Positions 1-41,480 are shown, numbered from the stretch's first letter. The stretch is DNA of 64,000 bases from Alphaproteobacteria bacterium (GCA_965243135.1 OZ251539.1:2976001-3040000), one strand, 5' to 3'. Translations and numbers: made by a program. Notes: generated by a model from the letters alone, not told the origin.

Positions 1-3000
1 TCCCGCGCCGCCGCAGGACGGCCGCCGAGAAAGGCGCGGGCCTCGTCCATGGCGTCGACCATCCGCGCATGGCCGCTCGCCGCGCGGATCAGGTCGAGCA
101 GGTCGCCCTTCTCGCCGGTCGCGGCGTCGGTCCACTTGCCCCGGCGGCCGCCCGCCAGATGGACGTAGAGCGACTGGCCGCGCTCTCCCGCCACCGACCC
201 CGCCTGCCAGTAGTTGCCGGCGCGCCGGCCGTTCGGCAGCCAGGTCCGGCAGACTTCCTCCGCCCGCGCCGCCAGCGCCGCGGACAGGTCCGCCGCCGAG
301 GGCCGCGGCGCGCTGCGCTCGGGCGCCGGCGCCATCTCCTCCTCCGCGTTCCGGAACGTGGATTCGCCGTTCCGTTCATGCCCGGGCGCGGCGGCCTTCC
401 GGTAGCCGTCCGCGCGAAGGTACTGCGTCTCGAATTCGTCCAGGTCATCCTTGCCGATCCCGGCGACGCGGTCCAGCACCGGCGCGTAGCGGCGGGGCTT
501 CGCCCGCCAGCGCGCCGCCATCTCCAGCGCCGCCGCGTGCCGCGCCAGCGTCGCGGCGAAGGCCGGCTCGGCCGCCACCGCCGGGCCTTCCCGGCGCGCC
601 CGCTCGCGCAGGTATCCCCAAGCTTCCATGATCTCGCCGCGTTCGCGCGCGAAAGCGCGCATCTCCTCTCCGTAGCGCAGGTCGAGGGCGGCGTTGCGGA
701 CGGCGCGCGCCATCCTCGCGCTCCAGTTGTCGTTCGCCGCGCGCGCCTCCGCCGTCCGCCCGGCGTCCGCGGCGTCATTGGCCGGCTCCGCGTCCCCGCC
801 GCCGGCCGCCTCGCGCCGTTCCGGACCCGCGGCCCGTTCGGCGTCCGCGCGTCCGGAGTCCGGCGCAGCCCCGGAAGTTCCGGCCGACCGCGCGTTCCTT
901 CCGGCCTTCCCGAAGGCGCCGTCCCGTCCGTCCTCGCGGCCCGGGCTCCGCCCGTCCCGCGCCGCCTCGCGTTCCGCCCGCATCCTGGCCCGCAGCTCGT
1001 CCGACATGTGGTCGACGGCCGCGACCTTCGGCTGCTCCCGCGACCACCGCTGCGCCAGATACTCCTTCACCTCTTCGTCGGTGACCGGCTCGTCCATCCG
1101 GTCTTCCGGCCGCCGCGCCGCGACGTCCATCGCCAGCGGCTCGCGGTCGACGTAGACGTCGAGACCTTTGCGATGACGGGTCGCCGCCGGATAGATCGTC
1201 TCCCTCGCCGGCTTGTCGTCGGCCAGCAGGAACGCATGGTCGACCGTCGCCCCCTGCGCCGAGGTGATCGTCAGGGCGTAGCCGTAGTCGAGCCGGATGT
1301 TGCCCCGGAAGTCCGCGATCTCGTCGTGCGCGAACGTCACCCGCCGTCCGTCTTCCGTATGCGCCTCGATCCACAGCCGGAAATCGTCCCCGCCCGAGGT
1401 CTTCCGCCCATCCGCCAGTTTCTCGATCCGGAAGTCGTCGACCGTGACGATCGTGCCGTTGAACAGCCGCTCGTCCCAGTGCGGCGCGCCGCAGCGCAAC
1501 CGGTCGCCGCGCGCGATCTCCAGCGGCGTCGCCCGCCGGTCGTCCAGTTTCCCCCGCGCGACCCGCACGACCGCCCGCTCTGCGTCCTCGCGCCCGGCGA
1601 GGACGCGCTCCCGCATCAGGAAGGACAGCGCGCCCACCTCCGCGTGCGTGCGCGCCAGAACCATCGTCGACCTGTCCGGGTTCTCGCGCCGGTAGCGGTC
1701 CCAATCGTCGACCAGCGCCGTCAGCGCGCTCTCCCGGTCCGCCGCGAGATGAAACCGCCCGCGCGCGTCCCACGCGGCGATCGCTTCCTCGGCCCGGCAG
1801 TCCTTCAGCGCCTCCGACGCCGCTACCTGCCACGGCGTGAACTCCGGCTTGTCCGCCGTCTCCGCGAACGCCCGGAGGCGCGCCTCGCGCTCCTCCGCCG
1901 GCATCATCCCGGCCTTGAGCCGCGCCGTCTCCGGGTCGAGCCCGTCGACGTGCCGCAGCACGTCGTCGATGTCAGGAAGCTGCCTGCGGATGCGGTCGAC
2001 CCGCGCGCTGCCGGCCACGTCGCGCACCAGCCGCAGTCCCGGCCCGGCCTCCACCGGCTGCTGCTGTTCGGTGTCGCCGGCCCACAGGATCTTCGCTCCC
2101 GTGAGCTTCGACAGCCGCATCAGGCTGTACGCCTGCCGCACCGAAAGCATCCCCGCCTCGTCGACGAAGATCACCGTCCGGTCGTCGATCTCGAGCTGTC
2201 CCTTCGCCGCCATCCGCAGCAGCCGGGCGACCGAATACGGCGGGATTTCGCAGTCGTTGGCGAGCGCCACCGCCGTCCGCCACGCCACCGCGGCGCCCAG
2301 CAACCTGTACCCGCGGTCCCGGTACAGGTCGGCGACCGGCCGCAACGTCGTCGTCTTGCCCGATCCCGCCGCGCCCTCGATGATCGTCACCCGGCCGGCG
2401 CGCCCGGCCGCGTGCCGGATCGCCTCCGTCTGCTCCTCCGACAGCGGGTAGCCGTCCTTCAGCAGCAGCTCGATCTTCGCTTCGATCTCCTGGGCCGGCA
2501 CCGCGAAGCCGGCGGCGCGGACGGCCTCTTCGGCCATATCCCGGATCTCCTCCTCCATCCCGACATGCGCCTTCGTCGAGAAGGCCCGCGTATGCGCGAG
2601 CCCGGCCTCCGCGTCCGCCGAGTCCTCCGGCTTGTCCATGCGCACGATCTCTTCATGGCGCAGCGCGCGCTCCAGGCAGGTCGCGATCGCGTCGCGGTCG
2701 AGCAGCCCCGCGGTCGCGTTCTGAACCCGCTCGACGATGTCGGGCAGGCGGAACACCGCTTCCTCGCGGGTGAGGTCGGCGGGCAGCTTCTCCAGGGTTT
2801 CCGTGAGCTTCCGGATCGCTTCCTGCGTCGTCTCGATCTCGTGCCCGGCCGCTTTTTCGATCATCTCGCGGACGTTCTCGACGAACGCTTCCGCCTCGCG
2901 CCGCCAGCGTTCGTGGCGCTCCTCCGAACCGTTGTCGTGATATTCCTTCCGCGCCCGGGACGACAGGTTCGCCTGCGCCGCCCGCGACGCGTTGCCCTTC

Positions 3001-3782
3001 ACCGAATATCCCTTCTTCGCCGCTTCCTCCTCGATCGTCCGCCGCCGCTTCGACCATTCCTCGACCAGATCCTCGGGGATCCCGACGATGCGCGTGAACT
3101 CGCCCCGCGCGCCGTACCGCTCCGTCCGGATGCCGAGCCGCTCCCGGAGGTTCCACGCCAGCGCGTTGCGGTAGGTCGCGCCGGCCGCCATTTTCCATCG
3201 GTAGAGCGGGTACTGGTGGACCGCCCGGAACTTCCCGTCGAAATGCGCCCGCGCGACGTTCAGGATCACGCAGTGCGTATGCAGTTGCGGGTCGTTCGCC
3301 CGCGACGAGCCGTGCTGGAACGTCGCCGCCATCAGGTCGGCGTCGACGACCTTGATGATGCGCTCTCGCGTCCGGATCCGCGTGTAGCTGCAATGCGCGA
3401 CGACGACCTCCTCGAGCGCCGTCCGCGCCGCGTCGTTGTGCGCCCGCTCGATCTCCGCCCGCAGTTCGGGGTCCGCCACCGCCCACAGCGCCGACACCGT
3501 CTTGTCCGCGGAGAACGTCATGTCGAGGCCGGCCGAACGGCCTTCCTTGCCCGCGTTCTGCGTCAGCGCCGACCCGTCGACCGGGGAAAAGCCGCCGTAG
3601 AGAGCCATCCAGTCGGCGGTCTCGACCTTGCCGCCGTCGGCGAGATCGAACAGGCCGGACGGATTGAACCAGACTCCGTCCGGCTCCTCGCCGCCGACGT
3701 AGTACGAATCGGCCGGCCGGTACGACTGTTGGCATTCCATGTAATAGGCGGCGTCCGCCGCCTGGCCGAGCGAGCAGACCAT
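1..3782 (-). CDS. MobF (TrwC/TraI-like) relaxase-helicase with C-terminal primase-type domain; 3' end lies outside the window
   Basis: Hand translation from ATG 3782: MVCSLGQAADAAYYMECQQSYRPADSYY (two YY pairs), DMTFSADKTVS, HUH motif DPQLHTH, Walker A IIEGAAGSGKTT, VIFVDEAGML. It is absent from the ORF track because there is no in-window stop; + ORF 69..3944 is its antisense shadow. Confidence 0.92.
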   Translation of the reverse strand, partial: MVCSLGQAADAAYYMECQQSYRPADSYYVGGEEPDGVWFNPSGLFDLADGGKVETADWMALYGGFSPVDGSALTQNAGKEGRSAGLDMTFSADKTVSALWAVADPELRAEIERAHNDAARTALEEVVVAHCSYTRIRTRERIIKVVDADLMAATFQHGSSRANDPQLHTHCVILNVARAHFDGKFRAVHQYPLYRWKMAAGATYRNALAWNLRERLGIRTERYGARGEFTRIVGIPEDLVEEWSKRRRTIEEEAAKKGYSVKGNASRAAQANLSSRARKEYHDNGSEERHERWRREAEAFVENVREMIEKAAGHEIETTQEAIRKLTETLEKLPADLTREEAVFRLPDIVERVQNATAGLLDRDAIATCLERALRHEEIVRMDKPEDSADAEAGLAHTRAFSTKAHVGMEEEIRDMAEEAVRAAGFAVPAQEIEAKIELLLKDGYPLSEEQTEAIRHAAGRAGRVTIIEGAAGSGKTTTLRPVADLYRDRGYRLLGAAVAWRTAVALANDCEIPPYSVARLLRMAAKGQLEIDDRTVIFVDEAGMLSVRQAYSLMRLSKLTGAKILWAGDTEQQQPVEAGPGLRLVRDVAGSARVDRIRRQLPDIDDVLRHVDGLDPETARLKAGMMPAEEREARLRAFAETADKPEFTPWQVAASEALKDCRAEEAIAAWDARGRFHLAADRESALTALVDDWDRYRRENPDRSTMVLARTHAEVGALSFLMRERVLAGREDAERAVVRVARGKLDDRRATPLEIARGDRLRCGAPHWDERLFNGTIVTVDDFRIEKLADGRKTSGGDDFRLWIEAHTEDGRRVTFAHDEIADFRGNIRLDYGYALTITSAQGATVDHAFLLADDKPARETIYPAATRHRKGLDVYVDREPLAMDVAARRPEDRMDEPVTDEEVKEYLAQRWSREQPKVAAVDHMSDELRARMRAEREAARDGRSPGREDGRDGAFGKAGRNARSAGTSGAAPDSGRADAERAAGPERREAAGGGDAEPANDAADAGRTAEARAANDNWSARMARAVRNAALDLRYGEEMRAFARERGEIMEAWGYLRERARREGPAVAAEPAFAATLARHAAALEMAARWRAKPRRYAPVLDRVAGIGKDDLDEFETQYLRADGYRKAAAPGHERNGESTFRNAEEEMAPAPERSAPRPSAADLSAALAARAEEVCRTWLPNGRRAGNYWQAGSVAGERGQSLYVHLAGGRRGKWTDAATGEKGDLLDLIRAASGHARMVDAMDEARAFLGGRPAAAR

Positions 3783-3884
3783 CAGCCGCGCTCCCGCGGC
3801 GGTGCCGGGCGGCGGTTTCCGCGCCCGTCCGGCGGGCGGATTCCCCCTTCTTTTCGGCGCTTTCGGGGCCCGGCGGGCGCCGTC

Positions 3885-3960
3885 AGGCGGAGCCGCGGGC
3901 GGGTCGGCCCCGCAGCCGCGCGCGCCGGAGGTGCACAGGTGTGAAGACCAGACATGACCT
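3885..3960 (+). promoter_or_regulatory. Putative oriT with nic at 3942/3943 (AGGTGT^GAAG)
   Basis: Lies just upstream of the MobF gene. GGTGT^ resembles MobF-family nic sites (F, R46), is preceded by a GC hairpin (gcggg..cccgc) and coincides with the duplication junction. Confidence 0.55.
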
Positions 3961-5278
3961 TTTCGCGGTTGCGGGGGATGGAGTATAGGCGCCGGTCACT
4001 GAAGAGCAAGGGGGACGGGGAGCGGTCGTGAGAGTCCGAGGCCGCCGCTCGCGAGCGTTTCGTTGCGCTGGGGGCCGCGCCGAGGGGGCAGGTTGGAGCG
4101 GCTATCGGGTACCGCCTCTGCCTTCGGGGCGAAATGGACGGCGCGCGAGCGCAATGGCAGCGGCGCGAACAGGCATCGGTTCCCCCGGGCGGCAGGGCCT
4201 GGTCAGCGAAGGGGCGGTACGACCGTCAACCGTTCAGCGGCGCTTGCCGCCTTCGTTTGCGATCGGAGCCGGAAGATCCTTCAGGCGGTCCGGGGGATCC
4301 TGCGCTCAGAGTCCGATCGCCGCATCGGGATCGCCGGCGGCGAGCGCATTCATCCAACCGAGGCAAAGCTCGCGGGATCGGAAGCTTCCGTAAGCCGCGG
4401 CTTCCTGACGTTGAACGATCGGAAAAGTCGAGTAGACGTACCGGACATCGTCGCGGTCGGTCACGCCGTAAAGGTGAAAGAAAACGGCGTCCAGCTTCGC
4501 GCGAAGCGAGAGGCGGCGATCCTCGTCCCAAAGAAACGGCGGCAGGACTTCGCCGTTTCCGTCTACGTGGTCGAGGGCGCTGGCAAAAGGGGCCATGTCG
4601 TGGGCCGTGTGAAGACCAGACATGACCTTTTCGCGGTTGCGGGGGATGGAGTATAGGCGCCGGTCACTGAAGAGCAAGGGGGACGGGGAGCGGTCGTGAG
4701 AGTCCGAGGCCGCCGCTCGCGAGCGTTTCGTTGCGCTGGGGGCCGCGCCGAGGGGGCAGGTTGGAGCGGCTATCGGGTACCGCCTCTGCCTTCGGGGCGA
4801 AATGGACGGCGCGCGAGCGCAATGGCAGCGGCGCGAACAGGCATCGGTTCCCCCGGGCGGCAGGGCCTGGTCAGCGAAGGGGCGGTACGACCGTCAACCG
4901 TTCAGCGGCGCTTGCCGCCTTCGTTTGCGATCGGAGCCGGAAGATCCTTCAGGCGGTCCGGGGGATCCTGCGCTCAGAGTCCGATCGCCGCATCGGGATC
5001 GCCGGCGGCGAGCGCATTCATCCAACCGAGGCAAAGCTCGCGGGATCGGAAGCTTCCGTAAGCCGCGGCTTCCTGCCGTTCAACGATCGGAAAAGTCGAG
5101 TAGACGTACCGGACATCGTCGCGGTCGGTCACGCCGTAAAGGTGAAAGAAAACGGCGTCCAGCTTCGCGCGAAGCGAGAGGCGGCGATCCTCGTCCCAAA
5201 GAAACGGCGGCAGGACTTCGCCGTTTCCGTCTACGTGGTCGAGGGCGCTGGCAAAAGGGGCCATGTCGTGGGCCGTGT
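3943..5278. repeat. 668-bp direct tandem duplication (3943-4610 and 4611-5278)
   Basis: Two near-identical copies. The differences I saw are ctgacgttgaac vs ctgccgttcaac. GTGT microhomology at 3939-3942, 4607-4610 and 5275-5278. Confidence 0.97.
4306..4610 (-). pseudogene. Duplicated 3' end (~100 codons) of the Type IIG RM gene
   Basis: TAHDMAPFASALD...DPDAAIGL matches the C-terminus of 4974..8981 with one aa change (VQRQ vs VERQ). Confidence 0.9.
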
Positions 5279-8200
5279 AGGTCAGTTCCAGCACCGCCTC
5301 GCGGACGATTTCTCCTGCCGACTTCGGTCCGAAATTGATCGTCTCGTAGCGTTCCCGAGGAACGACGGGAAGTTGCTCGATTATGAACAGGTTCAAGTTC
5401 TGTCCCTGGACCTTCTGGCGGACGACGTAATCCAGCGGAACCGAATTGAGGTTGGCGACCAGCAGTGCGGTAGTGCCTGCCGGATCTTCGCCGACGTTGA
5501 GCAACGGCAGGGAATTTCCGGCTCCGCACACGGGCAGGACCGCGGCGATCATCGACCGCATGTTCGTTGGAGAGGTGACATGTTTCAAGCCGAGAACGTA
5601 CGACGTACCGGGAAGTTCCGCCCCTTCCTTCAACACCCAGAATTGCGGATCAGGCAGCCAGTCCGGGTCCTGGTGCTGCTTTGCCGTCGCCGGCGCCGGC
5701 TGTGCGGGACGGTGCACGTTCTCCCGGTTCACGGCGACGCTGGCTGCCCGGTGGTCGTACGCCTGCACCATCTTGCCTTCGTAGAGCGGCAGCCACTCGC
5801 CCTTCGGGCTGTCGTAGCGATTTCCGCCGACCAACCAGGCGCCTTCCTTTTCCTCGAGTTCCCACCGCATCCGGAAAAGATGGGAATCGTTGGTCATGTC
5901 GAACATCCGGGTATAAGTCACCGGCCAGACGGCGACCGGCTCGCCCCCCGAACGGTCGACCAGAACCGGCAGGCGTTCGTAGATGGCCGTCGTCAGTTCC
6001 GCGTCGCGGGGGGTGCGGAATATCGGCGCGGTGCCGGTGTTGGGATTAACCCGCGCGAACTCCGCAGCGGTCAGCGGAAAACTGCGCTCCGGGATTTCGG
6101 AAACGGCATGCATGTAGAACGCGCACCGCGCCGGCGCGCCGGTCGGCGACCCGGAAGCGACAAAGACGCAGAATTTGAAACGGCTGTCCACATCCGGAAA
6201 AAAGCCTCTTTTGTTCTCGAAGTCGTACAGCGCCCTGAGTCGGCCCGCGGTCGCTACGCTCTTGAAGAAATCGGCAGCGGTCTTATCCGAGGCGATGCCG
6301 GAAGGCGTGAGCAGTCCGACGATGCCTTCCGGCCGGATCAGCGCCATGGCGCGCTCGACGAACAACGCATAAAGGTTCATGTCGCCGCATGACAACAGGG
6401 GATAATCGTTCGAGGCGCGCGCCATGCGCGCCATGGCCTCGGCACGTTCGCGGGCTTCGTCGTATTCCGCCGCGAGCGGATCCTCTTCCCGTTCCATAGC
6501 GGCAATCATGCGCCTGCGGTCAGCGGCGCGGGTCGCTGCCGCGATCTCCAGACGCCGCGCCGCAAACCACTCCACCTGTTGCAACTTCACCCGGTCCCAG
6601 GGTGGATTGCCGACAACCGCATCGAAACCCCCCTCGCGGTCACGCGCCTGCCAATTTCTCCAGACGCCGGGAAACGCCACCTGCCAGCTGAGAAATCGTT
6701 CGTCGGCCATCAACCCGAAGGCACGTCGGAGAAGCCCGGCGAAACGTTCCGCATCCGCGCCGGTGGCCGCCACGCCTGTCCGCCCCAGCGCTATGTCGAG
6801 CGGATCTCCGAATTGGCCGTCGAAGAAGGCATGCACGGCGCTAGTGTCTTCAGGTTCGCAAATCCAGTCGAGGGCGTGCACCAGCGAAAGAAAGGCGTCC
6901 AGCGGCGCTGTGCGTTCGCGAACGTCGTCAAAAATTTCCGCCGATCTGTCGGCTTCCGCGATTTCGGCGTCCGTCAGCGCCTCGATCGTCTCCATTTCCC
7001 TTTCCGCGGAGGTCGCCCGCCGCAACGGTTCGTGCAGCAGCAGCGGCGACCCGTGCGCGGCCGCCCGGTCGGTTCCCTCCCGAACCCAGGATCCGAACAG
7101 GCTGTTCCCGCAGCGGAGGTGGTGATCAAGGAAGCTCAGCGGCGCTCCGACAGTGAAGGTATGCAACCAGAGCGCCACCTTCGCGAGCTCTACCGCCATC
7201 GGATTCTTGTCTACGCCGTAGACGCAACGCTTGAGCACCATCCGCCGAACGATGTGACGGTCGTCGAGCCGCTCCGGGTCGATAGTCCAGCTCCCGGCCT
7301 CCGCGTTGGCCAGCACGGTGCGGCGGATGTCCGCGATGCGCGCGTTCAACGGCGAACGGTAGCCGTCTACCGCCGCCTCCGCATCGGCGATCGCGGCAAG
7401 AGTGCGATCCGATAGGTAATCCACCACGCCGACCAAGAAATGCCCTGAACCCATCGACGGATCGCACACCTTGAGCAGCAAGATCGCTTCCGCAGGATCG
7501 AGTCTCTCGAGCGATTTTTCTCCGGCCCGGGCAGCGTCCATAAACGCATCGAGGCGGGCGTCAATCAGCGGGTCGAGCGTCTCCCGCAAGACTACCCCGA
7601 CGAGGTCGTCCGGCGTGTAATAGCTCCCTGAGCTTTTGCGGGCGAAGAGGTTGGGGCGAATCGCTATGCCGCCCTCCTCGCGCGCGATCTCCTGCTCCAG
7701 CAAACGCTCGTAGATGGATCCGAGTTGTCCGACGCCGAGGTCCCGGTAGTTGATGTATCGGCGTCCGGGACCCTCGTAAGACAGGATGTCGATCACTTCC
7801 GACATCACGTCGTCGCCGATCCTGATGCGCTCCAGAAGCGGCATCCGCCTCCGGTCGAACAACCCGCCGTTGTATGGCGGCAGTCCGATCCTCGGGTCTC
7901 CCTCGCCGACGATTCGGCAGAGATCGTCGATCGCCGTCCAGTAGCGGGTGGTGGCCGGCGAAAACGGAAGCCCCTGGTTCAAGCGATTTCCGATCTCGCC
8001 TCGCACCTTTTCCCGCAGGGCGTAGTCCGCGTAACGGGGATCGCGGACCGGAAGCAGGTCGCGATCCTCCGCATAGAGAATGAAGAGCAGCCGGTAAAGC
8101 AGAATCAGCGTGGCTTCCCGTACCTCGGCAGCCGCCGCGTCCGGCGCGCCGGCCGCGATCGCGCCGGCGAGCACCGGGAAGACCCGCCCGAAGATCGTTT

Positions 8201-8981
8201 CCGACAGATTGGCGGCGACGCGTTGTTCGTAGAAACGGCTTTTCTCGATGGAGCGCTCGTGGAACGTTCGCTCGTCCGCCGGTCCGGGACGGAAGCTGTT
8301 CCGCTGGAAGAGCAGCGAGAAAACCTTGAACCACCAGCGGCGCTCGTCGGGAGAAAGTTCTCCCGAAAGGCCGAGCGCTGCCGACAGATCGACTTCCAGA
8401 AACTGTTCGGCGATCGAGCGGGCGCCGGAAAAATAGAGTCGCCACCGTTCGCCGTTCGACAGGATCCCCCAGCGAATGGCGCCGTCCGTGAGGATTTCGG
8501 CGCGGCGGAGATAGTGGATCATCTGGTGCGACGGCGCGGACAGTCCGCCGCGGTCCGACGCGCGGTCCAGCGGGAGACGCCAGCGTTTCGCCTCGACGAT
8601 GGCGAGCCCGAGCGTGTAGCGGCGCGCTTCGTCGGCAAACTCGTTAGCTCGCATTTTCGCCGCGTCGTCGAGAAAAAGAAGCCCGTCCGGAACTTCGCTT
8701 CGCCCGCGGATCGAAAGGTTCTGCTGGCGAAGGTTCGCCGTCCAGCCGAGCCGATCCAGCACCGGCCAGATCAGGTCGTCCTCGGTCTGCGTCTCGTTCG
8801 GCGTCCCGCCCGTCGGAAAAACGTCGAAAATGCCGCGGATTTCCCTTTCGAGATCGTCCGCATCACCGAGACCGCGCCACTCCGGGGTCTCGGCGATAGT
8901 GTCGGTCAGGAAATCTTCAGCGAACAGGCTGCCGCGAATAGGTATGCTCACAGGCCTCCGCTCCTCGACGTTCCACCGCAC
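4974..8981 (-). CDS. Type IIG (Eco57I-like) fused restriction endonuclease/N6-adenine methyltransferase, 1335 aa
   Basis: N-terminal PD..EAK nuclease motif (VPDGLLF...IVEAKR), SGSYYTP, SAM motif DPSMGSGHFL, GVDKNP, catalytic VVGNPPW, C-terminal specificity region. Confidence 0.92.
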   Translation of the reverse strand: MRWNVEERRPVSIPIRGSLFAEDFLTDTIAETPEWRGLGDADDLEREIRGIFDVFPTGGTPNETQTEDDLIWPVLDRLGWTANLRQQNLSIRGRSEVPDGLLFLDDAAKMRANEFADEARRYTLGLAIVEAKRWRLPLDRASDRGGLSAPSHQMIHYLRRAEILTDGAIRWGILSNGERWRLYFSGARSIAEQFLEVDLSAALGLSGELSPDERRWWFKVFSLLFQRNSFRPGPADERTFHERSIEKSRFYEQRVAANLSETIFGRVFPVLAGAIAAGAPDAAAAEVREATLILLYRLLFILYAEDRDLLPVRDPRYADYALREKVRGEIGNRLNQGLPFSPATTRYWTAIDDLCRIVGEGDPRIGLPPYNGGLFDRRRMPLLERIRIGDDVMSEVIDILSYEGPGRRYINYRDLGVGQLGSIYERLLEQEIAREEGGIAIRPNLFARKSSGSYYTPDDLVGVVLRETLDPLIDARLDAFMDAARAGEKSLERLDPAEAILLLKVCDPSMGSGHFLVGVVDYLSDRTLAAIADAEAAVDGYRSPLNARIADIRRTVLANAEAGSWTIDPERLDDRHIVRRMVLKRCVYGVDKNPMAVELAKVALWLHTFTVGAPLSFLDHHLRCGNSLFGSWVREGTDRAAAHGSPLLLHEPLRRATSAEREMETIEALTDAEIAEADRSAEIFDDVRERTAPLDAFLSLVHALDWICEPEDTSAVHAFFDGQFGDPLDIALGRTGVAATGADAERFAGLLRRAFGLMADERFLSWQVAFPGVWRNWQARDREGGFDAVVGNPPWDRVKLQQVEWFAARRLEIAAATRAADRRRMIAAMEREEDPLAAEYDEARERAEAMARMARASNDYPLLSCGDMNLYALFVERAMALIRPEGIVGLLTPSGIASDKTAADFFKSVATAGRLRALYDFENKRGFFPDVDSRFKFCVFVASGSPTGAPARCAFYMHAVSEIPERSFPLTAAEFARVNPNTGTAPIFRTPRDAELTTAIYERLPVLVDRSGGEPVAVWPVTYTRMFDMTNDSHLFRMRWELEEKEGAWLVGGNRYDSPKGEWLPLYEGKMVQAYDHRAASVAVNRENVHRPAQPAPATAKQHQDPDWLPDPQFWVLKEGAELPGTSYVLGLKHVTSPTNMRSMIAAVLPVCGAGNSLPLLNVGEDPAGTTALLVANLNSVPLDYVVRQKVQGQNLNLFIIEQLPVVPRERYETINFGPKSAGEIVREAVLELTYTAHDMAPFASALDHVDGNGEVLPPFLWDEDRRLSLRAKLDAVFFHLYGVTDRDDVRYVYSTFPIVERQEAAAYGSFRSRELCLGWMNALAAGDPDAAIGL

Positions 8982-12027: not shown

Positions 12028-12912
12028 GTGACGGACAAGGTTACCTATAAAGATCCGCTCTACGTCTTGGCTCGGCTGGACACGGCGCTGAAGAAGGAAT
12101 GGCAGAAGTATATAGCGACACCTGTGACGTCGGATATGGCCCCAGATCACATGGTCGCGCAGGCTTGGGGATACGTCGTCGCGGGGTACTTTCTGATCGA
12201 GCAAGGCCTCAAGGCCATTCTTTACATGCGCGGTGGTAAGCCACCCAAAACACACGCACTGTCCGTCCTGTTCACCAAATTACCAGCTGAGGATCAGAAC
12301 GTCCTGAGGAAGCATTACGACGACTTCCGCCATGCGTTCCCTGGCATGAGTTCGTTTCCGCTGACAACGCTCGACGATTTTCTGGTGAACCTGGACGGTG
12401 GGCAGAATAGCCAAGGCCGGTACATCGGCTCCTTCGATTGGCGATACTTCCTGACGGAGTCGGGAAGCGGCATGTCGATGCCGTTTGTCAGCATCAACGT
12501 CATGCATGAGGTCGTGTACGGATGCGTGCAGTTGGTCGAGGCAATCCACAAGGGAGACAATGAGGCAGCCGGGACTACTTACAGTTGGCGACTCCGACAG
12601 TGGAGATCGAGGCTCCACCGGGACTGGTTGACGGTTCGCATGAATTCGCCAGGATGGGGACAGGAAGGAGATCGGATCGAGATCCTATGGGGACCGGACT
12701 ACAGCGGCCGGTACGACTACTTCGTGTTCAAAAGCGATAGGCGCCAGTCGTTCTTTGCGCCGCTTCCGAATGCGGAGAAAGTCAAATTAGCAATGATCGA
12801 TAAGCGGAAAGAGCTGGAGTCGTTCGACCCAAAGAAAGGATTTCGGAGCATCGGGACCTCAGTAAGCTGGTCGGTGGGGCGGCAGGAACCCGAGTTCCAT
12901 CTGATGTATTAG
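12028..12912 (+). CDS. HEPN-like domain protein
   Basis: GGAGG RBS and GTG start; pattern FLIEQGLKAIL...PPKTHALSVLF...DWRY is typical of HEPN folds; GC lower than flanks. Confidence 0.65.
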   Translation: MTDKVTYKDPLYVLARLDTALKKEWQKYIATPVTSDMAPDHMVAQAWGYVVAGYFLIEQGLKAILYMRGGKPPKTHALSVLFTKLPAEDQNVLRKHYDDFRHAFPGMSSFPLTTLDDFLVNLDGGQNSQGRYIGSFDWRYFLTESGSGMSMPFVSINVMHEVVYGCVQLVEAIHKGDNEAAGTTYSWRLRQWRSRLHRDWLTVRMNSPGWGQEGDRIEILWGPDYSGRYDYFVFKSDRRQSFFAPLPNAEKVKLAMIDKRKELESFDPKKGFRSIGTSVSWSVGRQEPEFHLMY

Positions 12913-13479
12913 GGCAAACATCGGGACAATACGAGCTCGTGGCTTCGTTCTTGTCGCGTCGCAGGTATTGAGCGGAAGATGAGAGGGGCATGGAGATATG
13001 TCGGTCACCCAAGACCTACGCTGATTTGTCCGACCTGTCGTTCTCACCTTACTCCGCAACGAGTCTGTTAGTAATGGTCGGTTCGCGGCTGATCCGCGCC
13101 CTCCAGTCCCTGACCGTCTCGGTATCGATTCCCGTCGTCTGGGCCACAGCTCGGTCGAGGCAGTCGCGCATGTCGTCATCGGCTCCATTGTTCCATGGTT
13201 TGACAGGCATGTGCTTGGTGCGCTCGTAGTCGACGGTAGGCGCGCCGAGCGTCATATTGCAGGCGGCGGGCTGGATGCCGTGCGGTTGACGTCGAGGCCG
13301 CTATGAGCGCTCACGATAATCGGCAGTTTCAGGTGCAAAATAATCGAGGATGCCGCGCCTAGAAGGAAGGCGTTTCCGTTTCCTGTCACGCCTGAGAGTG
13401 ATGGGGCCGGGAAACGCCGTTTTCTTTCAACACAGCCCGCAGCGCCATGGCGTGGCCCTGGAAGGCAACCAGTGAACTC

Positions 13480-13900
13480 GGCTGCTGTCATGAGCCTTTT
13501 GATCGAGCTCTTCAAATGTTTCCATCGATTACCATGCCCATGCAGGTCGCCGCGCTCGCTACAGAGAGATGATTCCCGGCCGTGCGCCGTAACTGTGACC
13601 CCCGTACACGAGGTCGTTGAGAAGCTGTTCCCGCACGCGAAAGAGGGGTGCGGCCGTCACTTGGCCTGTCGGCACGGCAAAACGGGCGTTCACATGCAGA
13701 AAATGCGCACTGCCTTCGAGTTCGAAACACGGGCTTGTCCAAAGCGCCGCGGGCGGTTTTTCTGGACTCAACCCGGAAGCCAGATTGCCGGAGGACACGA
13801 TCTCCAGGCGGTCGTCGTAGACCGTCACGCTCACGAGGCCGCCGCGAATCGCGTAGGGCAAAAGGCGTTCACGAGAGCCACCGACGCCGCCTGCACACCG
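13480..13900 (-). pseudogene. Remnant of ATP-binding/RecG-C-terminal-like (HATPase_c_4) regulator
   Basis: GGLVSVTVYDDRLEIVSSGNLASGLSPE motif; frames broken. Confidence 0.55.
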
Positions 13901-13989
13901 GCGTTCCGCTTGCGAACGCGACAATCCTGTCCACTCTCTTTCGCAGCCTGTCCTCATTCATGGCCGTGCGGTCGATGCACTGGAGCTGA

Positions 13990-14270
13990 TCCCGGGCGAA
14001 CCAGATCGGCAGAGACGATTCCCTGAACGATTACAGTGGGGGCATCGTCGAGATCCTTCGGAAAGTTCGGCGGCTCCTGCCCGGACCGGCACGGTCTGGC
14101 TCAACGTCGGGAACTCCTACGCTTCCGGAAACCGCATATATCGGGCGGCTGACCGGAAGAACCGCGCCCGCGCCATGGCTGTTCGACCTCCGACGCCGGG
14201 AGGGCTCAAGCCGAAGGATCGGGATCCCCTGGCGTCTGGCGCTGCAGTCCGAACGGCAGGCGGTTGCGAA
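13990..14270 (+). pseudogene. Site-specific DNA methyltransferase (N4/N6 class) remnant
   Basis: Fragments across frames: IVEILRKVRRLL, GTVWLNVG, GLKPKD, GIPWRLALQ. Confidence 0.6.
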
Positions 14271-14373
14271 CGGTCTAGCATTGCGGCCCCACGGGCTTTT
14301 GGCCGGTTCCATCGTGCTGTGGTGTATTGAAGCGTGGCCCCGCAGCGCCCCGAGATACCGATGCGTCACCGGG

Positions 14374-15228
14374 TTAGAAGCGCATCCGGTAAGGTTCTGG
14401 CGTAGGCGGAGACGCCGGAAGCGGAGGCTGTGCCGGATCCTGCCACAAGGGCCGAAACCAAAGCGGCGAACCTTGGGGTGTCGTGATGTAGCGGCTCAAC
14501 AGCACGATCTTGCCCCATACGTCGATGTCCTCGGTCTCCGCATAATCCAGGAGTTCGGCATCGCTATGCGGAGAAAGTCGATCCATCGCATACGTGATGT
14601 TGTCGTCAAGGACGAGCCACCAAAAGTCGATTCCCTTCGCTCGCCCGTCTTTACGCACTTTTCGGGCTTTTGCGCTTATCGCCGAGGCGATTGCCCGACC
14701 CAGTTCGTCGCCATAAAGGATTCTGCCGATGTCCGTGCCCCACCAGTTCAAGGTTGGATTTACCGTCTCCGGCCCGACCGCAATCAATACGATGCCTCGT
14801 CCTGCTATCCTGTCCTGTGGACTGATCTGAAATTCCCGCCACGGTATATAGCATGCTTTCGTGGCTCGAACGGCCTCCCTTATTCTCTGCTTAAGTCGAT
14901 CCTTCGAAGATTTTGGAGGAAGCGGCTCCCTTTCGTCGTACTGGCAGATCCAATCAAAGCCCGAAACTATTTTCTCCTCTGCCTCGACCATTCGGATCAA
15001 CTTCTCGATCCTTCTGTGGAACGCCGTCTCCGCTGTTCTTCCCCAGCCATCTTCAATCTCCAACAGGCGCACTTCGACAGCGATTTTCTTGCCCATGAAT
15101 TCGCATGTGAAGTCCGGCGGACCTTCTCCGTGTCCCCGGCCCACATAGCGAATTTCGGTCGCCCCGATCTGCTTCAGCCACCGCTCGACGGGGATTTCGC
15201 TGTCTTTAGGTGTATCAGTGCACGCCAT
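14374..15228 (-). CDS. Hypothetical protein, PD-(D/E)XK nuclease-like
   Basis: 284-aa ORF with normal composition; GEGPPDFTCEFMGKKIAVEVR motif. Confidence 0.6.
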   Translation of the reverse strand: MACTDTPKDSEIPVERWLKQIGATEIRYVGRGHGEGPPDFTCEFMGKKIAVEVRLLEIEDGWGRTAETAFHRRIEKLIRMVEAEEKIVSGFDWICQYDEREPLPPKSSKDRLKQRIREAVRATKACYIPWREFQISPQDRIAGRGIVLIAVGPETVNPTLNWWGTDIGRILYGDELGRAIASAISAKARKVRKDGRAKGIDFWWLVLDDNITYAMDRLSPHSDAELLDYAETEDIDVWGKIVLLSRYITTPQGSPLWFRPLWQDPAQPPLPASPPTPEPYRMRF

Positions 15229-15624
15229 TCGCTTTCCTCCGCTTGCAGGCTATTTTGCGGACGCCAAGACGAAACCCCGTCCGCAACCTGTTTTCAACCT
15301 CGTCCGACTGAAACCAGAACAAAAATGTGGCTCCAGAAGACGCTTTTGGGGTTCAACTCGCCCGGCTCCTCGCTCACCCAATGTTCAGCCAATCCCTGTT
15401 CGAAGACGGAGTGGCGCTCAACCGCTTTCGGGTCTGCTCCACGGCGATTTTCAGTCGCACACATGTTTCCTCCCATCTCCCTCGGCAGGGATATAGAGAC
15501 CTTACGGCTGCCTCGCAACGGCGCAGTCAAAATATCCGGTTGTTGTTTTCGAGGGAACTACCGGTTATGTTTCCTTCCCTGTACCTGTTCCGCTTGGTGG
15601 AACTCAACAATGGAAAGAAGATCG

Positions 15625-15897
15625 ATGACGGGTTTTGACGAAAACCAACTCACGAAAGGCCAGCTTCGCAAACTGATGGCGCTGCGAAAATCCCTCGGCC
15701 CCGATATCGCCGACGAGGCGTTCGCGAAATGGATCGCCCGGCAAAGCAAATCGGTTCCTGAAGACCGCAATGCCGCCGTGATCGCCGAGGCGCTCATGCC
15801 GCTGGTCGAACAAGGCAAGTTGAGAATTCCGCGAGGAGGTTACCTCGTTCGCCGCGGCCGCGGCCGGGTGATCGCGGAGCCCGTAAAGGAAGAGTGA
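15625..15897 (+). CDS. Small hypothetical protein (90 aa)
   Basis: MTGFDENQLTKGQLRKLMALRKSLGPDIADEAFAKW...GGYLVRRGRGRVI; protein-like C-terminal part of ORF 14281..15897 behind a purine-rich RBS. Confidence 0.7.
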   Translation: MTGFDENQLTKGQLRKLMALRKSLGPDIADEAFAKWIARQSKSVPEDRNAAVIAEALMPLVEQGKLRIPRGGYLVRRGRGRVIAEPVKEE

Positions 15898-15959
15898 CCG
15901 CGGAACGGCGGCCGGCAACGACAGCCGCCCGCTGAGCAGCGGTCAGACGCCGCCGGCCC

Positions 15960-16650
15960 GAGACAGCGGAAAAACAGGATCGACCTCGGGGCCGCGCCCA
16001 TGTTCTGCTTCGGCCTGTCCCGCAACCCCCGCCTGACGGAGCGCATCGCCAGGCAGTTGCGCAAATCGCGCCGCCGCTGCGTCTCGACCGGCAAGGCGTC
16101 GCGGCGGTTCTGCGACTTCCGTTACCGGACCCGAAGGTCGTGGAGCCGGACGCGGCGGGTAGTCGCGAAGGGGCTGCCGGGTCCTCCGGCCTCAACGCCC
16201 GCTTCGTCGTGACTTCGCTGGGCTGCAAGCGGGCGGGGGCGCAGGCTCTCTACGAGGACCTGTACTGCGCGCGCGGGGAGAACCGGTCGCCGGATGCCGG
16301 AATCACACGGAGTTTCCGACCTGTACTGCGCGCGCGGGGAGAACCGCATCAAGGAACAGCAGCTCGACCTGTTCGCCGACTGGACCTCGACCGCGACCGG
16401 CGAACCAGTTGCGCCTCGACTTTGCGACGTTCGCCAGCCACCTGGTGGCGGCGATTCGGAGGGTTGGCCTGGCCGGCACCGGGGAGGACAGGGCGCAGGC
16501 CGGAACGATTCGGACGAAGCTCCTCAAGGTCGCCGTTTGCGTTCGGAGGGTTCTGCTCTCGTTTTCGCCGGTCTGGCCGTGAAAGGAGTTGTTGGCCCGG
16601 GTCCTGGCGAACCTGCAGGCGGCTGCGCCGCCGGCCCCGACCTGACGCTG
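15960..16650 (+). pseudogene. IS1380-family transposase remnant
   Basis: FRYRTRRSWSRTRRVVAK, NARFVVTSL, LYEDLYCARGENRIKEQQLDLFAD; frameshifted. Confidence 0.85.
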
Positions 16651-17269
16651 CTCGCGGACAGCCCTTTTTTGAAAGCCGGAACGCCGGCCACGGGACAGGT
16701 ATGTTCGGGCGCTGGATTCCACGGCGTCGAAGTCGTCCGCAACCGCGCAAGTTTGCGTTTCGTTCACGAAAAAGCCTTGCTTGCCGACTGCGCCCTGCTT
16801 CCCCGGCTCGCCGGTCGTCCCGAAAACCGCGCCCGCAACCCGCATCCAACCCCCTGATTCGCTCTGATGCGGGCTAGGGCGTTGCCGCATCTGAACGCCC
16901 CGACCGCGCCGCTCTGCGCCACGCTGTAGCGGGGTTGAAGATTCAGCGGCGCGACAGACCGAAGAACGGGTCGGTTTGGTTCGTGGCAAGCGTCTCCGCG
17001 AACTGCCCGCACCCGTCCGTCGTTCGGGCGGAATCACTTCACCGGTATGGCAACCCGCGAGTTCGCTCGTTCGTTGACGTTGTAAATCAGAACTTCGAGC
17101 GCCCGGAATGAAATGTTCGGTTTCGTGAACCCACGCTCGATGCGACCGGGGTATACGACACGGTTTCCTCACCTTGCGCAACTCCTTCTTGATCGCGTGC
17201 GCCTCCGTACTCGCGTTGGTGCCGGAAAGGCCGCCGCCGTTCCTATCGCGGTGCCCCGCTGGAAGCCTT

Positions 17270-18330
17270 TCGGCTTCCGGCGGCTCGCGGTCATTCGAGA
17301 ACCCGCACGACAAGCGCGTCGACGCACGGGCGCACCGTCATCTCGAACTCTCCCTTTTCGGCCGTCGGCGAGACATCGATTCGCTCGGCCAAAACTTCAG
17401 CAACGCGTCCCGCCGGGTTTCGTCGTTCGCGGCGGCGGCGGCGAACCCCTCAAGCACGCACTTCAGGGTCCAAAGCAGGTCCGCTGTCGAGCGTTCTTAC
17501 GGACGGCGCATGGACTTCACCTCGATCATCAGGGCGGCGACCGATCGCTCCAGATCACCGATGCGCCGCACGATCGCCCGGGGATCCTTTCCTCCCCGCT
17601 CGATGCTCTCAACCAGCAGCGCTATCCTTTCCCTCCCGCCTTCGATCTTCGCCTCAAGGCGGTTCCTTACTTTGCTCGTACTCGCGGATTGCGGAAGCGA
17701 GCAGCGCGTAACCTTCCCGCCACGCTTCGACCCATCAGTGCGCGGAGCGCCCGGTCTTCCGTCCACCTGACGTCGATGCGTATCCCGTTGTCGCAACCCC
17801 GCCTGTCGTACCACCTCTTGCAGGCGCAGCCTCTGCCGCTCCCTGATGGCACCGCCGCAGGTGAGCACTGCCGTCAGGGGATGCGGAACGCGTTTTCCGC
17901 CCTCCGGGACCGGTCGCTGCCTGCGTGACCCCGCAACTGCGCCCGCTCCCAGAGCTCGTCGCCCCGCGCCGCAAATACGGCACTTTCGGAACCGTCCACT
18001 CGGATTCCGGCACGGGACGCGGACCGCTTCGCCCCGCCTTGGGGTCTGTAAACCGGCGGATCCGGCCGTACACCAGAATCCCGCCGTACAGCTTGTTGTG
18101 CAGTATGCCGATCCCACGCTTCCTCCAACCCGAGGGGGCCCATTCGCACCATTCCCTGCTCCTCGAACCCGGAACGCCTCCTCGTTGGGGATCCGGCGGT
18201 CTCGCCCTCGGGGACCCCATGCAACCAGTAGTGGTGAGATATCCGGGTTAGCTTGTTCCGTCCCCTTTCTCCATATGTTGTGGTTCAACAGCATCAACGG
18301 GATGCCGCCGGAGAGGAGCCACATCGCAGT
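17270..18330 (-). pseudogene. Large serine recombinase remnant, paralogue of 25815..27341
   Basis: GILHNKLYGGILVYGRIRRFTDP, PESEW, IALLVESIERGGKDPRAIVRRIGDLERSVA align with the intact recombinase C-terminal half. Confidence 0.8.
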
Positions 18331-18443
18331 TGAGAGCCGTTTGCGCTCTGCCATTTTTTGTCGGCCTGCCGCCCGGCCGACGCCCCGCGAACCGCTCCGC
18401 CCGCCGGCGGCCCGCAAGGGCCTCGCGGGTGCTCGGTCTTCAG

Positions 18444-18508
18444 AACAAACGCTCATGATCGGCGCCTGCTCGCCCCGTAGCAGGTAACTGGTTGTTTTGC
18501 TGGCGTCG
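18444..18508. repeat. 65-bp repeat; inverted copy at 21119..21183
   Basis: Reverse complement matches at 61 of 65 positions by manual comparison. Confidence 0.9.
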
Positions 18509-18833
18509 CGCCGCAAACCCGGTGCAAGCCGGGCCGTGGCCTGAACGCAGGCGGCCAGGGGCGGCGCCCGGCCGGCCGTGGGGTGGAATCTGCGAAAATC
18601 GCGGTCCCGGTGCGGAGAATTCGCAGTTTTCCGTACCCGAGGAAAAATTCGGTACTCCTGAAAGCTGTCCGCATTTCAAGGCGTTGCGGACAGCACACGC
18701 GGCTCGTTGATTAGGGAGCTTGTGAACACATATAGGCTATGCTACAATATTTCAGATCTTGCATGAAGCTTGAGTGAAAAGCAAAAGCTTGGTCTGCATT
18801 GCGCTTGAGAAGGCATGCTATGGGGGTGTAGCC

Positions 18834-37913: not shown

Positions 37914-37919
37914 TCGGCG

Positions 37920-37948
37920 AGAGTAGGCCGCCGCGCCGGAACCGTCAA
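37920..37948 (-). promoter_or_regulatory. Sigma70 promoter, probably giving a leaderless mRNA
   Basis: Minus strand TTGACG-N17-TACTCT-N6-ATG with no RBS; same layout at 30930 and 48973. Confidence 0.6.
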
Positions 37949-37964
37949 GGAGGAGGTGGGTCCG

Positions 37965-38625
37965 TGTCAGTAACAGATGATATGTCCGGTCCATGTACCA
38001 AATGATCTCTTAGAAGGCTTCCAGACCAAAGGAGGTGGCGGCGGACGGAACAACGACAGGGACTGAGGAAGTTCGAAGAGGTGTCGCACCGGGGGTGCTG
38101 AGCCAGAGCGAGGCGGCGGAGGGCGTTTCGGAGCGCACCTTCCGGCGCTGGCGCGACGAGGCGGAGGGCGCGGAAGGGTTGTACGACCGTCGCCTGGGCC
38201 GGGTCTCGGCGCGCCGGGCCGGCGCGGACGAGGTGGCGCAGGTTCTGGAATTGTTCGACACCCGGTACTGGGACTTCAACGCCAGACACTTTCACGAGAA
38301 GCTGGTCGCCTGCCATGGCGTCCGGCGCAGCTACAACTGGGTCCGGCTGACCTTGCAGGCCCATGGCCGCGTGCGAGCCGCGCCGCGCCGCGGCGCCCAC
38401 CGGCGCAAGCGCCCGCGGCGGGCGCTGCCCGGTATGATGCTGCACCAGGACGGCTCGCGCCACGAGTGGGTGTCCGGTCGGCAGTGGGCGTCACCATGGA
38501 CGACGCCACCAGCGAGGTCTACTCGGCTTTCTTCGTCGCCGAGGAAGGCACCATGTCGACTTTCCAGGCGCTTCGCGAGGTGGTCGGAGAGCGCGGGCTG
38601 TTCTGCTCGTTCTACACCGACCGGC
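37965..38625 (+). mobile_element. Truncated second copy of the IS1202-family element
   Basis: Same left end TGTCAGTAACAGATGATATGTCCGG; GMMLHQDGSRHEW; 3' half missing. Confidence 0.88.
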
Positions 38626-41477: not shown

Positions 41478-41480
41478 GGC

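Follow-up and report, generated by a model that had tools for sequence, protein, structure and literature searches.

In a 64,000-nucleotide stretch of the genome of an Alphaproteobacteria bacterium (GCA_965243135.1 OZ251539.1:2976001-3040000, hereafter the window, which is positions 2976001-3040000 of C1, a single 6.1-Mb contig of genome G000), we found a gene for a conjugative relaxase that continues in one reading frame through a helicase into a primase. The encoded chain of 1979 residues consists, from its N-terminus, of a TrwC/MobF relaxase, a superfamily 1B (SF1B) helicase, a linker that is partly low-complexity and partly helical, a primase of the DnaG type (DUF7146 and Toprim_3) and 500 residues without a family match. 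We favor, with moderate confidence, the reading that this protein serves as the intact DNA-transfer enzyme of an integrated conjugative element, a large one with Dot/Icm-like type IVB genes, a coupling protein, ArdC, RepC, recombinases and defense cargo, and that it would nick and unwind the element and then prime DNA synthesis in the recipient. The relaxase-helicase-primase design is already catalogued, albeit little studied, and the protein is another lineage of it.

A single open frame beyond the window edge

The minus-strand frame 3..3782 is open over 1260 codons from an ATG at 3782 and runs past the left edge of the window. In the extended locus L001, no stop codon interrupts it over 1979 residues (12843..18782 on the minus strand), and the gene ends at L001 12843, that is, at G000:C1:2973843. 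The first-pass annotation of the window had proposed a protein of more than 1260 residues in one frame, which the leftward extension bears out, and had remarked that the gene was missing from the list of open reading frames (ORFs); it is indeed absent, because a list confined to the window omits a frame that is open at the left edge. Since the G+C content at this end of the window is 70-77%, very long frames are open on both strands over positions 1-3800. An equally long plus-strand frame (3..3944) was rejected as a shadow frame, its translation being Arg/Pro-rich nonsense, and the minus frame has a G+C content of 0.90 at third codon positions (GC3) and of 0.52 at second positions (GC2). The parts of the gene that precede the C-terminal 500 residues are as follows (window coordinates unless L001 is named).

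2886..3755, minus strand: TrwC/MobF relaxase domain, residues 10-299 (Pfam, NCBIfam, alignment to R388 TrwC)
1083..2444, minus strand: SF1B (RecD/TraI-like) helicase, residues ~447-900 (Pfam, motifs, PDB matches)
291..1082, minus strand: linker, residues ~901-1164 (Ala/Gly/Arg/Asp-rich low-complexity stretch, then a helical region)
1..290, minus strand: start of the DnaG-type primase module, residues 1165-1260 within the window (Pfam, PHROG, fold)
L001 14343-15305, minus strand: primase module, reaching residue ~1480 left of the window (DUF7146 and Toprim_3)

Relaxase, helicase and linker

Pfam TrwC (PF08751) matches the N-terminal domain with 218.7 bits against a cut-off of 25 (1.6e-64 on the full protein and 8e-65 on its window part), and the NCBIfam MobF model NF041492 with 199.8 bits against a cut-off of 100. 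The domain aligns with the solved structures of TrwC of R388 and of TraI of F and pCU1, keeping the Tyr-Tyr, Asp and His-x-His residues. Alignment to R388 TrwC (PDB 1omh) pairs ADSYYV/ADDYYA, LDMTFSADK/LDLTFSAPK and FQHGSSRANDPQLHTH/FRHETSRERDPQLHTH, and both the catalytic Tyr and the His triad of the HUH-type metal site are retained (ADSYYV/ADDYYA and HGSSRANDPQLHTH/HETSRERDPQLHTH). In the sequence, these motifs stand as AAYY at residues 11-14 (the first Tyr pair, outside the printed alignment), DSYY at 25-28 and H157, H168 and H170.

The helicase is matched by Pfam AAA_30 at residues 447-602 (127.6 bits; 6e-37 on the full protein, 2e-35 on the window part) and, weakly, by UvrD_C_2 at 833-874. 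It carries Walker A GAAGSGKT (470-477), VDEAGM (540-545), GDTEQQ (569-574) and SAQGATVD (841-848), and its sequence matches RecD2 (3e1s), TraI (5n8o), Pif1 and RecD in the PDB. The linker that follows had zero Pfam matches even at an E value of 10; Ala, Gly, Pro, Arg, Glu and Asp make up 0.71 of its residues, and its helical part is common to orthologues that lack the primase (residues 1011-1162 in G001 and 1014-1143 in G023).

A DnaG-type primase in the same frame

The first-pass annotation had quoted a motif after the helicase, AEEVCRTWLPNGRRAGNYWQAGSVAGERGQSLYVHL..GKWTDAATGEKGDLLDLIR, and compared it with the N-terminus of stand-alone alphaproteobacterial plasmid Toprim proteins. The motif lies in the minus-frame translation at residues ~1175-1240 and is the consensus AExVCRxYLPNGRRxGxYWxVGDVxGxxGxSLxVRL...WxDxATGEHGDLLDLI of alignment A1, which comprises this primase module and 81 relatives (82 rows). 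Downstream of it, in the same frame and beyond the window edge, Pfam places DUF7146 at residues 1272-1373 (7e-24, above the cut-off) and Toprim_3 at 1382-1476 (4e-11; 43.6 bits against a cut-off of 27.2). In addition, residues 1160-1480 match phrog_510 'DNA primase' over nearly the entire length (9.6e-40). Among the Toprim residues of A1, E230 is invariant and E227, D275, D277, D307 and N309 are conserved in at least 90% of the rows. All six are present here, where E227, E230, D275, D277, D307 and N309 are E1386, E1389, D1434, D1436, D1466 and N1468 of the full protein, within strings such as CEGIED (1385-1390) and QDRDAAG (1433-1439).

The AlphaFold2 model of the module, built from A1, has a mean predicted local distance difference test score (pLDDT) of 93.8. 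Foldseek returned 41 matches to it in the PDB at E<=1e-3, and all those listed are DnaG-type primases or primase-helicases. The best is the zinc-binding and RNA-polymerase domains of the Aquifex primase (2au3, 7e-10), followed by the T7 gp4 primase fragment (1nui, 3e-8) and by 5vaz, 1dd9 and 3b39 (~1e-6 to 1e-7), with T4 gp61, Twinkle and the DnaG cores of E. coli, Pseudomonas, Mycobacterium, Staphylococcus and Bacillus also listed. Since unrelated folds appear only at the next ranks, with E values of ~1e-2, the module is, as modeled, a complete DnaG-type primase core. The Toprim_2/3/4 domains found in mobile elements are interpreted as active primases of the DnaG-like kind in passages of Iyer et al. 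2017 (PMC5512222). Thus, profile searches for the TrwC, AAA_30 and Toprim_3 domains, the PHROG match, the model and Foldseek agree with the initial proposal that a MobF relaxase and a RecD-like helicase continue in frame into a primase.

When 1.84 billion representative proteins were scanned in full, 6867 relatives of the module were found with E<=1e-3; the number was 1900 with a limit of 1e-10 and 128 with one of 1e-30. The best 150 representatives are mostly stand-alone proteins of 310-360 residues that match the module end to end; 12 of the 150 hold it deep inside a protein of at least 1300 residues, eight of these with TrwC and AAA_30 and four, whose N-terminus may be cut, with AAA_30 only. 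On plasmids, the likeness to stand-alone Toprim proteins also held: the best 60 of the 1266 matching PLSDB records are alphaproteobacterial and cover 92-95% of the module at 39-41% identity, the matched gene being annotated as 'toprim domain-containing protein' in 36, 'DNA primase' in two and 'hypothetical conserved protein' in one, with no annotation under the match in 21.

The fusion recurs in independent data

An assembly artifact or a frameshift as the source of the fusion was rejected, as independent proteins and contigs of public sequencing runs keep it. Two proteins from other assemblies have the same domain set and are 95% and 87% identical to this one over its C-terminal 820 residues; for the primase module alone, the identities are 97% and 91%. 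Twenty public runs from eight studies hold part of the gene. The junction was checked in contigs (not raw reads) of four runs from three studies; each listed contig covers part of the gene, and together they tile the helicase-linker-primase region.

X1, L001 15819-18782: residues 1-988, 0 differences
X2, L001 15062-15715: residues 1023-1240
X4 (sponge metagenome), L001 14456-15556: residues 1076-1442, one 6-base deletion
X8, L001 15684-16302: residues 827-1033, one 21-base insertion

Five of the eight listed indels are multiples of three, and two (+1 and -1, three bases apart) compensate each other. The contigs span the junction of helicase and primase, and the listed indels leave the frame intact with one exception, which lies inside DUF7146 and is taken up below.

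Relatives, a split form and the primase tree

Two paralogues of 1581 residues are encoded elsewhere in G000 (P0006 and a 96.6%-identical copy, in open frames of 1623 and 1600 residues; C1:433693-438456 and C1:5475520-5480262). Both keep TrwC, DUF7146, Toprim_3, the relaxase motifs and all the primase acidic residues, and both lack the Walker A motif of the helicase and the HExxH motif described below. Both paralogues belong to further copies of the element, each of which has an ArdC and a coupling-protein match of its own. Within the genus, G001 encodes a 1730-residue TrwC-AAA_30 orthologue, 60% identical over residues 1-952 and without the primase, whereas G004 has a split form. There, a 1404-residue TrwC-AAA_30 protein is encoded separately from a 1349-residue DUF7146-Toprim_3-LPD3 protein (P0009, a primase-HExxH-LPD3 protein), the gene of which lies 5 kb downstream on the same strand.

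L020 (G004:C1:3725000-3743000), ORFs 12170-16384 and 2943-6992, minus strand: the G004 split genes, with a GHKL-type ATPase gene between them

TrwC is present in 21 of the 23 long proteins that match the module (1088-3464 residues), in 18 of them together with AAA_30. A quick maximum-likelihood tree was built from 132 primase modules, after 37 of 169 rows with fewer than 250 profile positions had been dropped. All 21 TrwC-fused modules fell into one 35-row clade with a support of 100 in the Shimodaira-Hasegawa-like approximate likelihood ratio test (SH-aLRT), apart from 95 mostly stand-alone rows. A second quick tree, of 68 rows, was enlarged by a TraI of the TIGR02760 type and by two TraA_Ti proteins. 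It retained the 35-row clade, and the three added rows stood together on a long branch outside all others (SH-aLRT 99). Both trees use a sample picked by likeness to the query, SH-aLRT support alone and a midpoint root, and the added rows are long and compositionally odd. Seven stand-alone matches to the primase module in two related genomes, G003 and G030, each contain one internal TGA, with open frames of 389-798 residues; the TGA may mark the boundary of a gene, a break that recurs or a case of recoding.

The architecture is already catalogued

The annotation had set a MobF-primase protein against a background in which primase fusion is known for MobQ and MobF proteins are typically relaxase-helicases. 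That background agrees with passages of a 2025 review (PMC12857230), which describe MOBF enzymes as relaxase-helicases and the primase as a MOBQ feature. The novelty that this implied for the design was overstated. NCBIfam TIGR02760 (TraI) aligns with the C-terminal piece of the protein over model positions 1593-1864 (E 1e-18). Stand-alone toprim frames match the same model at ~1590-1880 only (for example G343:C2 and G039:C22, 338 residues each), and therefore this part of the model is the DUF7146/Toprim_3 primase; the curated TraI model thus holds a primase module at its C-terminal end (~1555-1940). In G203, two loci match TIGR02760 positions 1-868 and 905-1904 in single frames of 1916 and 1924 residues, and Pfam finds TrwC (19-304), TraI_2B, AAA_30 (1015-1213), DUF7146 (1653-1754) and Toprim_3 (1766-1863) on one of these frames. 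G045 and G421 encode MobA_MobL, AAA_30, DUF7146 and Toprim_3, the TraA_Ti type of Rickettsiales, and a TraA_Ti of Rickettsia (R. bellii) of the MobA/MobL type with a Toprim primase is in print, as passages of PMC4564193 describe. At least 21 protein clusters have the architecture of the protein itself, and together with them these proteins place the fusion within a recurrent design.

In a search of 401 genomes of the class, the design was not confined to G000, given the G203 proteins. A search with TIGR02760 matched 63 of these genomes, six of which besides those named (G341, G391, G226, G153, G369 and G231) have the primase-region match in frames of at least 1500 residues. With the module itself as the query (E<=1e-20), 35 of the 401 genomes matched and a frame above 1200 residues was found in G000 only, a count that is too low because the more sensitive TIGR02760 search found more. 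Searched by tblastn against 72,556 plasmids, the whole protein was covered to at least 80% in 0 records; the best reached 47%, in the relaxase-helicase part, at ~30% identity. None of the 120 plasmid rows inspected for the module (the 60 best and 60 spread rows) is annotated as a relaxase, and a pattern search for related loci in the genome contigs gave 25 pattern matches, none of them confirmed. A literature search with incomplete coverage of subscription journals found no paper describing a MOBF-primase fusion.

The C-terminal 500 residues and a tail shared with ArdC

Residues 1480-1979 had no Pfam match at an E value of 10, LPD and MPTase families included, and no sequence match in the PDB. 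Alignment splits them into three pieces: a helical module bearing an HExxH motif (~1500-1690), a long helical part (~1700-1860) and a beta-rich tail (1866-1973). The motif, HEIVH at 1569-1573, is kept in five aligned relatives (L006, L007, L010, L011 and P0173). Its module recurs beside LPD3 in P0173 and P0009, and LPD3 adjoins the same primase or the HExxH module in P0013, P0009, P0033, P0037 and P0173. The long helical part recurs threefold in the G001 orthologue (L019 = G001:C148:77000-85000, ORF 743-5935), which has three tandem copies of a helical module present in a single copy here, at residues ~1660-1832.

The structure model of the C-terminal part has a mean pLDDT of 70.0 and a predicted template modeling score (pTM) of 0.39. 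Foldseek gave no significant match to it (the best, at E 0.044, was a small beta-barrel of Pelota), and a wide VIA-align search gave only spectrin-like or generic helical bundles, with Z up to 9.7, below the level that counts for helical models. In the ESM Atlas, the C-terminal part fell in with unnamed clusters at 0.91, one of them with LPD23 on 20% of its members; the tail alone scored 0.76, which is the chance level. The giant polyvalent-type profile phrog_10691 matches residues 73-250 of the C-terminal piece (2.5e-6).

The beta-rich tail has a homologue within the window, on an ArdC-like gene with ArdcN and MPTase-PolyVal domains; BLASTP aligns the two tails with 46% identity over 108 residues (E 7e-23).

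22425..22748, minus strand: ArdC-like C-terminal tail, ~110 residues, of the gene 22392-24026, homologous to relaxase residues 1866-1973

The relaxase-type tail is also found on two ArdC paralogues elsewhere in G000. With this query, it was found among 31 related genomes in G000 only, in eight places. The segment shared by the relaxase and ArdC could be an export or docking module.

The surrounding element

The genes that place the relaxase in a conjugative element lie on both sides of it.

C1:2921065-2922485 (L017 65-1482): DotI/IcmL and DotH/IcmK homologues, left of the relaxase, GC3 0.93-0.94
C1:2932390-2933685 (L017 11390-12685): full-length coupling-protein match, same element
Window 29010-30620: RepC replication initiator
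Window 40602-42608: two tyrosine integrases
From window 56718: housekeeping genes rodA, PBP2, mreC, mreB and leuA
Window 3782..3955, minus strand: small upstream frame of 57 codons if begun at the ATG at 3955 (given as 75 residues when begun at a TTG at 4009)

With secretion genes on the left and the integrases and housekeeping genes on the right, the element spans more than 100 kb. The GC3 of the secretion genes is 0.89-0.96 and that of the relaxase gene 0.90. Several large genes between DotH and the coupling protein had no Pfam match. A MOBF-type relaxase is here paired with Dot/Icm-like (type IVB) secretion genes. The coupling protein is followed by a transposase, two giant Eco57I-type methylase genes, Vsr, a 1665-residue NACHT protein, a PLD nuclease and a coupling-protein fragment; to the right of the relaxase are ArdC, a Sel1-repeat protein, a serine recombinase, RepC and the two integrases. 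Defense-like cargo surrounds the relaxase (window 4974-8981, L018 5229-10382, L001 3084-8081 and window 36369-37994) and comprises the Eco57I-type methylases (1335 and 1718 residues), the NACHT protein, the PLD nuclease, Vsr, a weak HEPN match and AAA-ATPase_like with PDDEXK_9.

The small upstream frame is Arg/Pro-rich and without a family match, and its TGA overlaps the relaxase ATG (TGATG). Further upstream, the assembly shows a near-perfect tandem duplication with a 668-bp unit (window 3939-5278; 3939-4407 is 100% identical to 4607-5075, and 4414-4610 to 5082-5278), which may be real or an assembly effect. It copies the 3' end and downstream region of an Eco57I-type methylase gene, creating a 123-residue ORF (4306-4677), and the copy of the downstream region is 157 bp ahead of the relaxase start codon.

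Transfer enzyme or not

As an intact transfer enzyme, the protein would act in a series of steps. The TrwC-type HUH relaxase would nick the origin of transfer (oriT) and stay covalently on the 5' end of the transferred strand, and the SF1B helicase would unwind the element. These two steps rest on strong homology to studied enzymes. Because such relaxases enter the recipient while bound to the DNA, a primase fused to one would be delivered in cis, along with the single strand, and this primase, with its zinc-less ribbon, RNA-polymerase domain and Toprim domain, could lay RNA primers for the complementary strand. The benefit would be priming that is independent of the recipient's primase, the same job as that of the separately transferred Sog (IncI) and TraC (IncP) primases. 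The fold, the motifs and the analogy with Sog and TraC1 make this priming role plausible.

Several observations weigh against this reading. A search for oriT in the region upstream of the gene gave only weak, short, imperfect inverted repeats and located neither oriT nor a nic site, no Pfam match to VirB4/TrbE (PF03135) was found in the genome, and the coupling-protein fragment, of 126 residues, lies 12 kb from the relaxase gene. In the primase, the N-terminal ribbon (four short strands in the model, residues 1165-1240) contains one Cys and one His, so that a Cys4 or Cys3His zinc site is impossible; the consensus of the 82-row family alignment contains no Cys pairs. The 'DaN-' motif, for which passages of Iyer et al. 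2017 (PMC5512222) name an aromatic residue at the second place, reads KDANDD at 1465-1470, with Ala in place of the aromatic residue, and the family consensus there is DFNDDL. The one frame-breaking indel among the eight listed is a -1 at L001 14931 in metagenome contig X8, at a depth of 12.2 of 28. Its source may be a decayed copy like that at G000:C1:2267763-2269726, which matches residues 970-1269 and 1247-1703 in two different frames and is probably frameshifted. This is one of the partial or broken copies of the gene elsewhere in G000, where elements of such kind do decay; another, at G000:C1:2257388-2258851, is a 557-residue frame that is 94% identical to residues 1494-1979.

A different role for the primase, which we consider unlikely, would be in the element's own replication, in the donor or after excision, like that of the MobA-linked RepB' of RSF1010/R1162, which is also needed for vegetative replication. 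RepC is encoded in the element and, therefore, plasmid-like replication may occur when it is excised; however, repABC-type replication is not known to require a plasmid primase, and 1027 of the 1266 PLSDB records with the module are typed conjugative. The MOBQ precedent is described in passages of the 2025 review (PMC12857230), whereas Toprim primases of such kind always occur with transfer systems of the type IV secretion (T4SS) type according to passages of Iyer et al. (PMC5512222).

It is quite unlikely, in our estimate, that the primase-like module is non-catalytic and serves in binding single-stranded DNA or in docking, or that the giant chain is cut after translation with the HExxH at 1569-1573 as a protease. 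The loss of the zinc ligands from the ribbon would suit such a module, but all the Toprim acidic residues are conserved. Processing would fit the position of HEIVH after the primase, its conservation in the five aligned relatives, the polyvalent-type phrog_10691 match and the proposal, in passages of Iyer et al. (PMC5512222), that metallopeptidase domains free primase domains from polyvalent proteins. However, the HExxH segment had neither a Pfam match at an E value of 10 nor a significant structural match by Foldseek or VIA-align, and the motif is missing from both G000 paralogues.

That the gene is a relic in a decaying integrated element that has lost transfer is very unlikely: the partial and frameshifted copies, the coupling-protein fragment, transposase and abundant defense cargo between the secretion genes and the relaxase, the duplication just upstream of the start codon and the absence of a VirB4-family match point that way, but the 1979 open codons have a GC3 matching that of the secretion genes, all catalytic motifs are intact, the variants in other data sets are mostly in-frame indels, and the same element contains a full-length coupling-protein match.

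A further step can be suggested, tentatively and with more doubt than belief. The primase clade, almost only MobF-tethered, may have arisen apart from the TIGR02760 and TraA_Ti fusions, so that a relaxase bringing its own primer-maker, with a zinc-less template-binding ribbon, into the recipient would have been invented a second time, independently; the tail shared by the relaxase and ArdC could be a recognition module for the Dot/Icm-like coupling protein, marking both for export.

Implications

The host range of conjugative elements is limited by how the transferred single strand becomes double-stranded in a foreign cell. In textbooks and in passages of the 2025 review (PMC12857230), MOBF relaxases are the ones with helicases, whereas primases are a feature of some MOBQ relaxases or are transferred as separate proteins. 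The relaxase-helicase-primase chains suggest a common solution, in which the primase would ride in covalently linked to the DNA. The present case adds a lineage that stands outside both the TIGR02760 and the Rickettsiales families, a form split naturally into two genes in a sister genome, paralogues with the primase but without Walker A, a primase without zinc ligands and a tail shared with ArdC. It is useful for experiments and opens no new category.

Comparison with known systems

The TIGR02760-type TraI of G203 is close in design, with TrwC, AAA_30, DUF7146 and Toprim_3 in the same order in one frame of ~1900 residues. Against the TIGR02760 model, the protein described here scores 162 bits with its N-terminal 1260 residues and 66.2 bits with the C-terminal piece, below the cut-off of 929.85. 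Unlike G203 TraI, it lacks the TraI_2B (second helicase-like) region and has an extra C-terminal part of 500 residues; its primase belongs to the 35-row clade (SH-aLRT 100), whereas that of G203 groups with TraA_Ti on the long branch. TraA_Ti of Rickettsiales (G045, G421) has the same three parts, relaxase, helicase and primase, with the same DUF7146 and Toprim_3, but its relaxase is of the MobA/MobL type (MOBQ class) and the one here is TrwC (MOBF). The model of Ti-type TraA, TIGR02768, gives 237.6 bits here against a cut-off of 590.45 and matches the helicase part only, with its best stretch at residues 281-601.

TrwC of R388 and TraI of F have, like the protein, an SF1B helicase and a relaxase of the same fold family with the Tyr and His motifs. 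They have no primase, and neither matched the C-terminal 820 residues here at E<=1. Sog (IncI1) and TraC1 (IncP) are, like the module here, DnaG-type Toprim primases of conjugative elements, and the stand-alone alphaproteobacterial plasmid toprim proteins of ~310-360 residues cover the whole module at 39-41% identity; all of these are separate proteins delivered in trans, whereas the module here is covalently built into the relaxase chain. The system of Sog is of type IVB (I-type), and the secretion genes here are also type IVB. According to passages of PMC5512222, TraC1 and Sog pass into the recipient and carry out priming there. MobA-RepB' of RSF1010/R1162 (MOBQ) combines a relaxase and a primase in one polypeptide, as here. 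Its relaxase is of another class, it has no helicase, and its primase is of a different fold family. The primase of MobA-RepB' is required for mobilization according to passages of PMC12857230.

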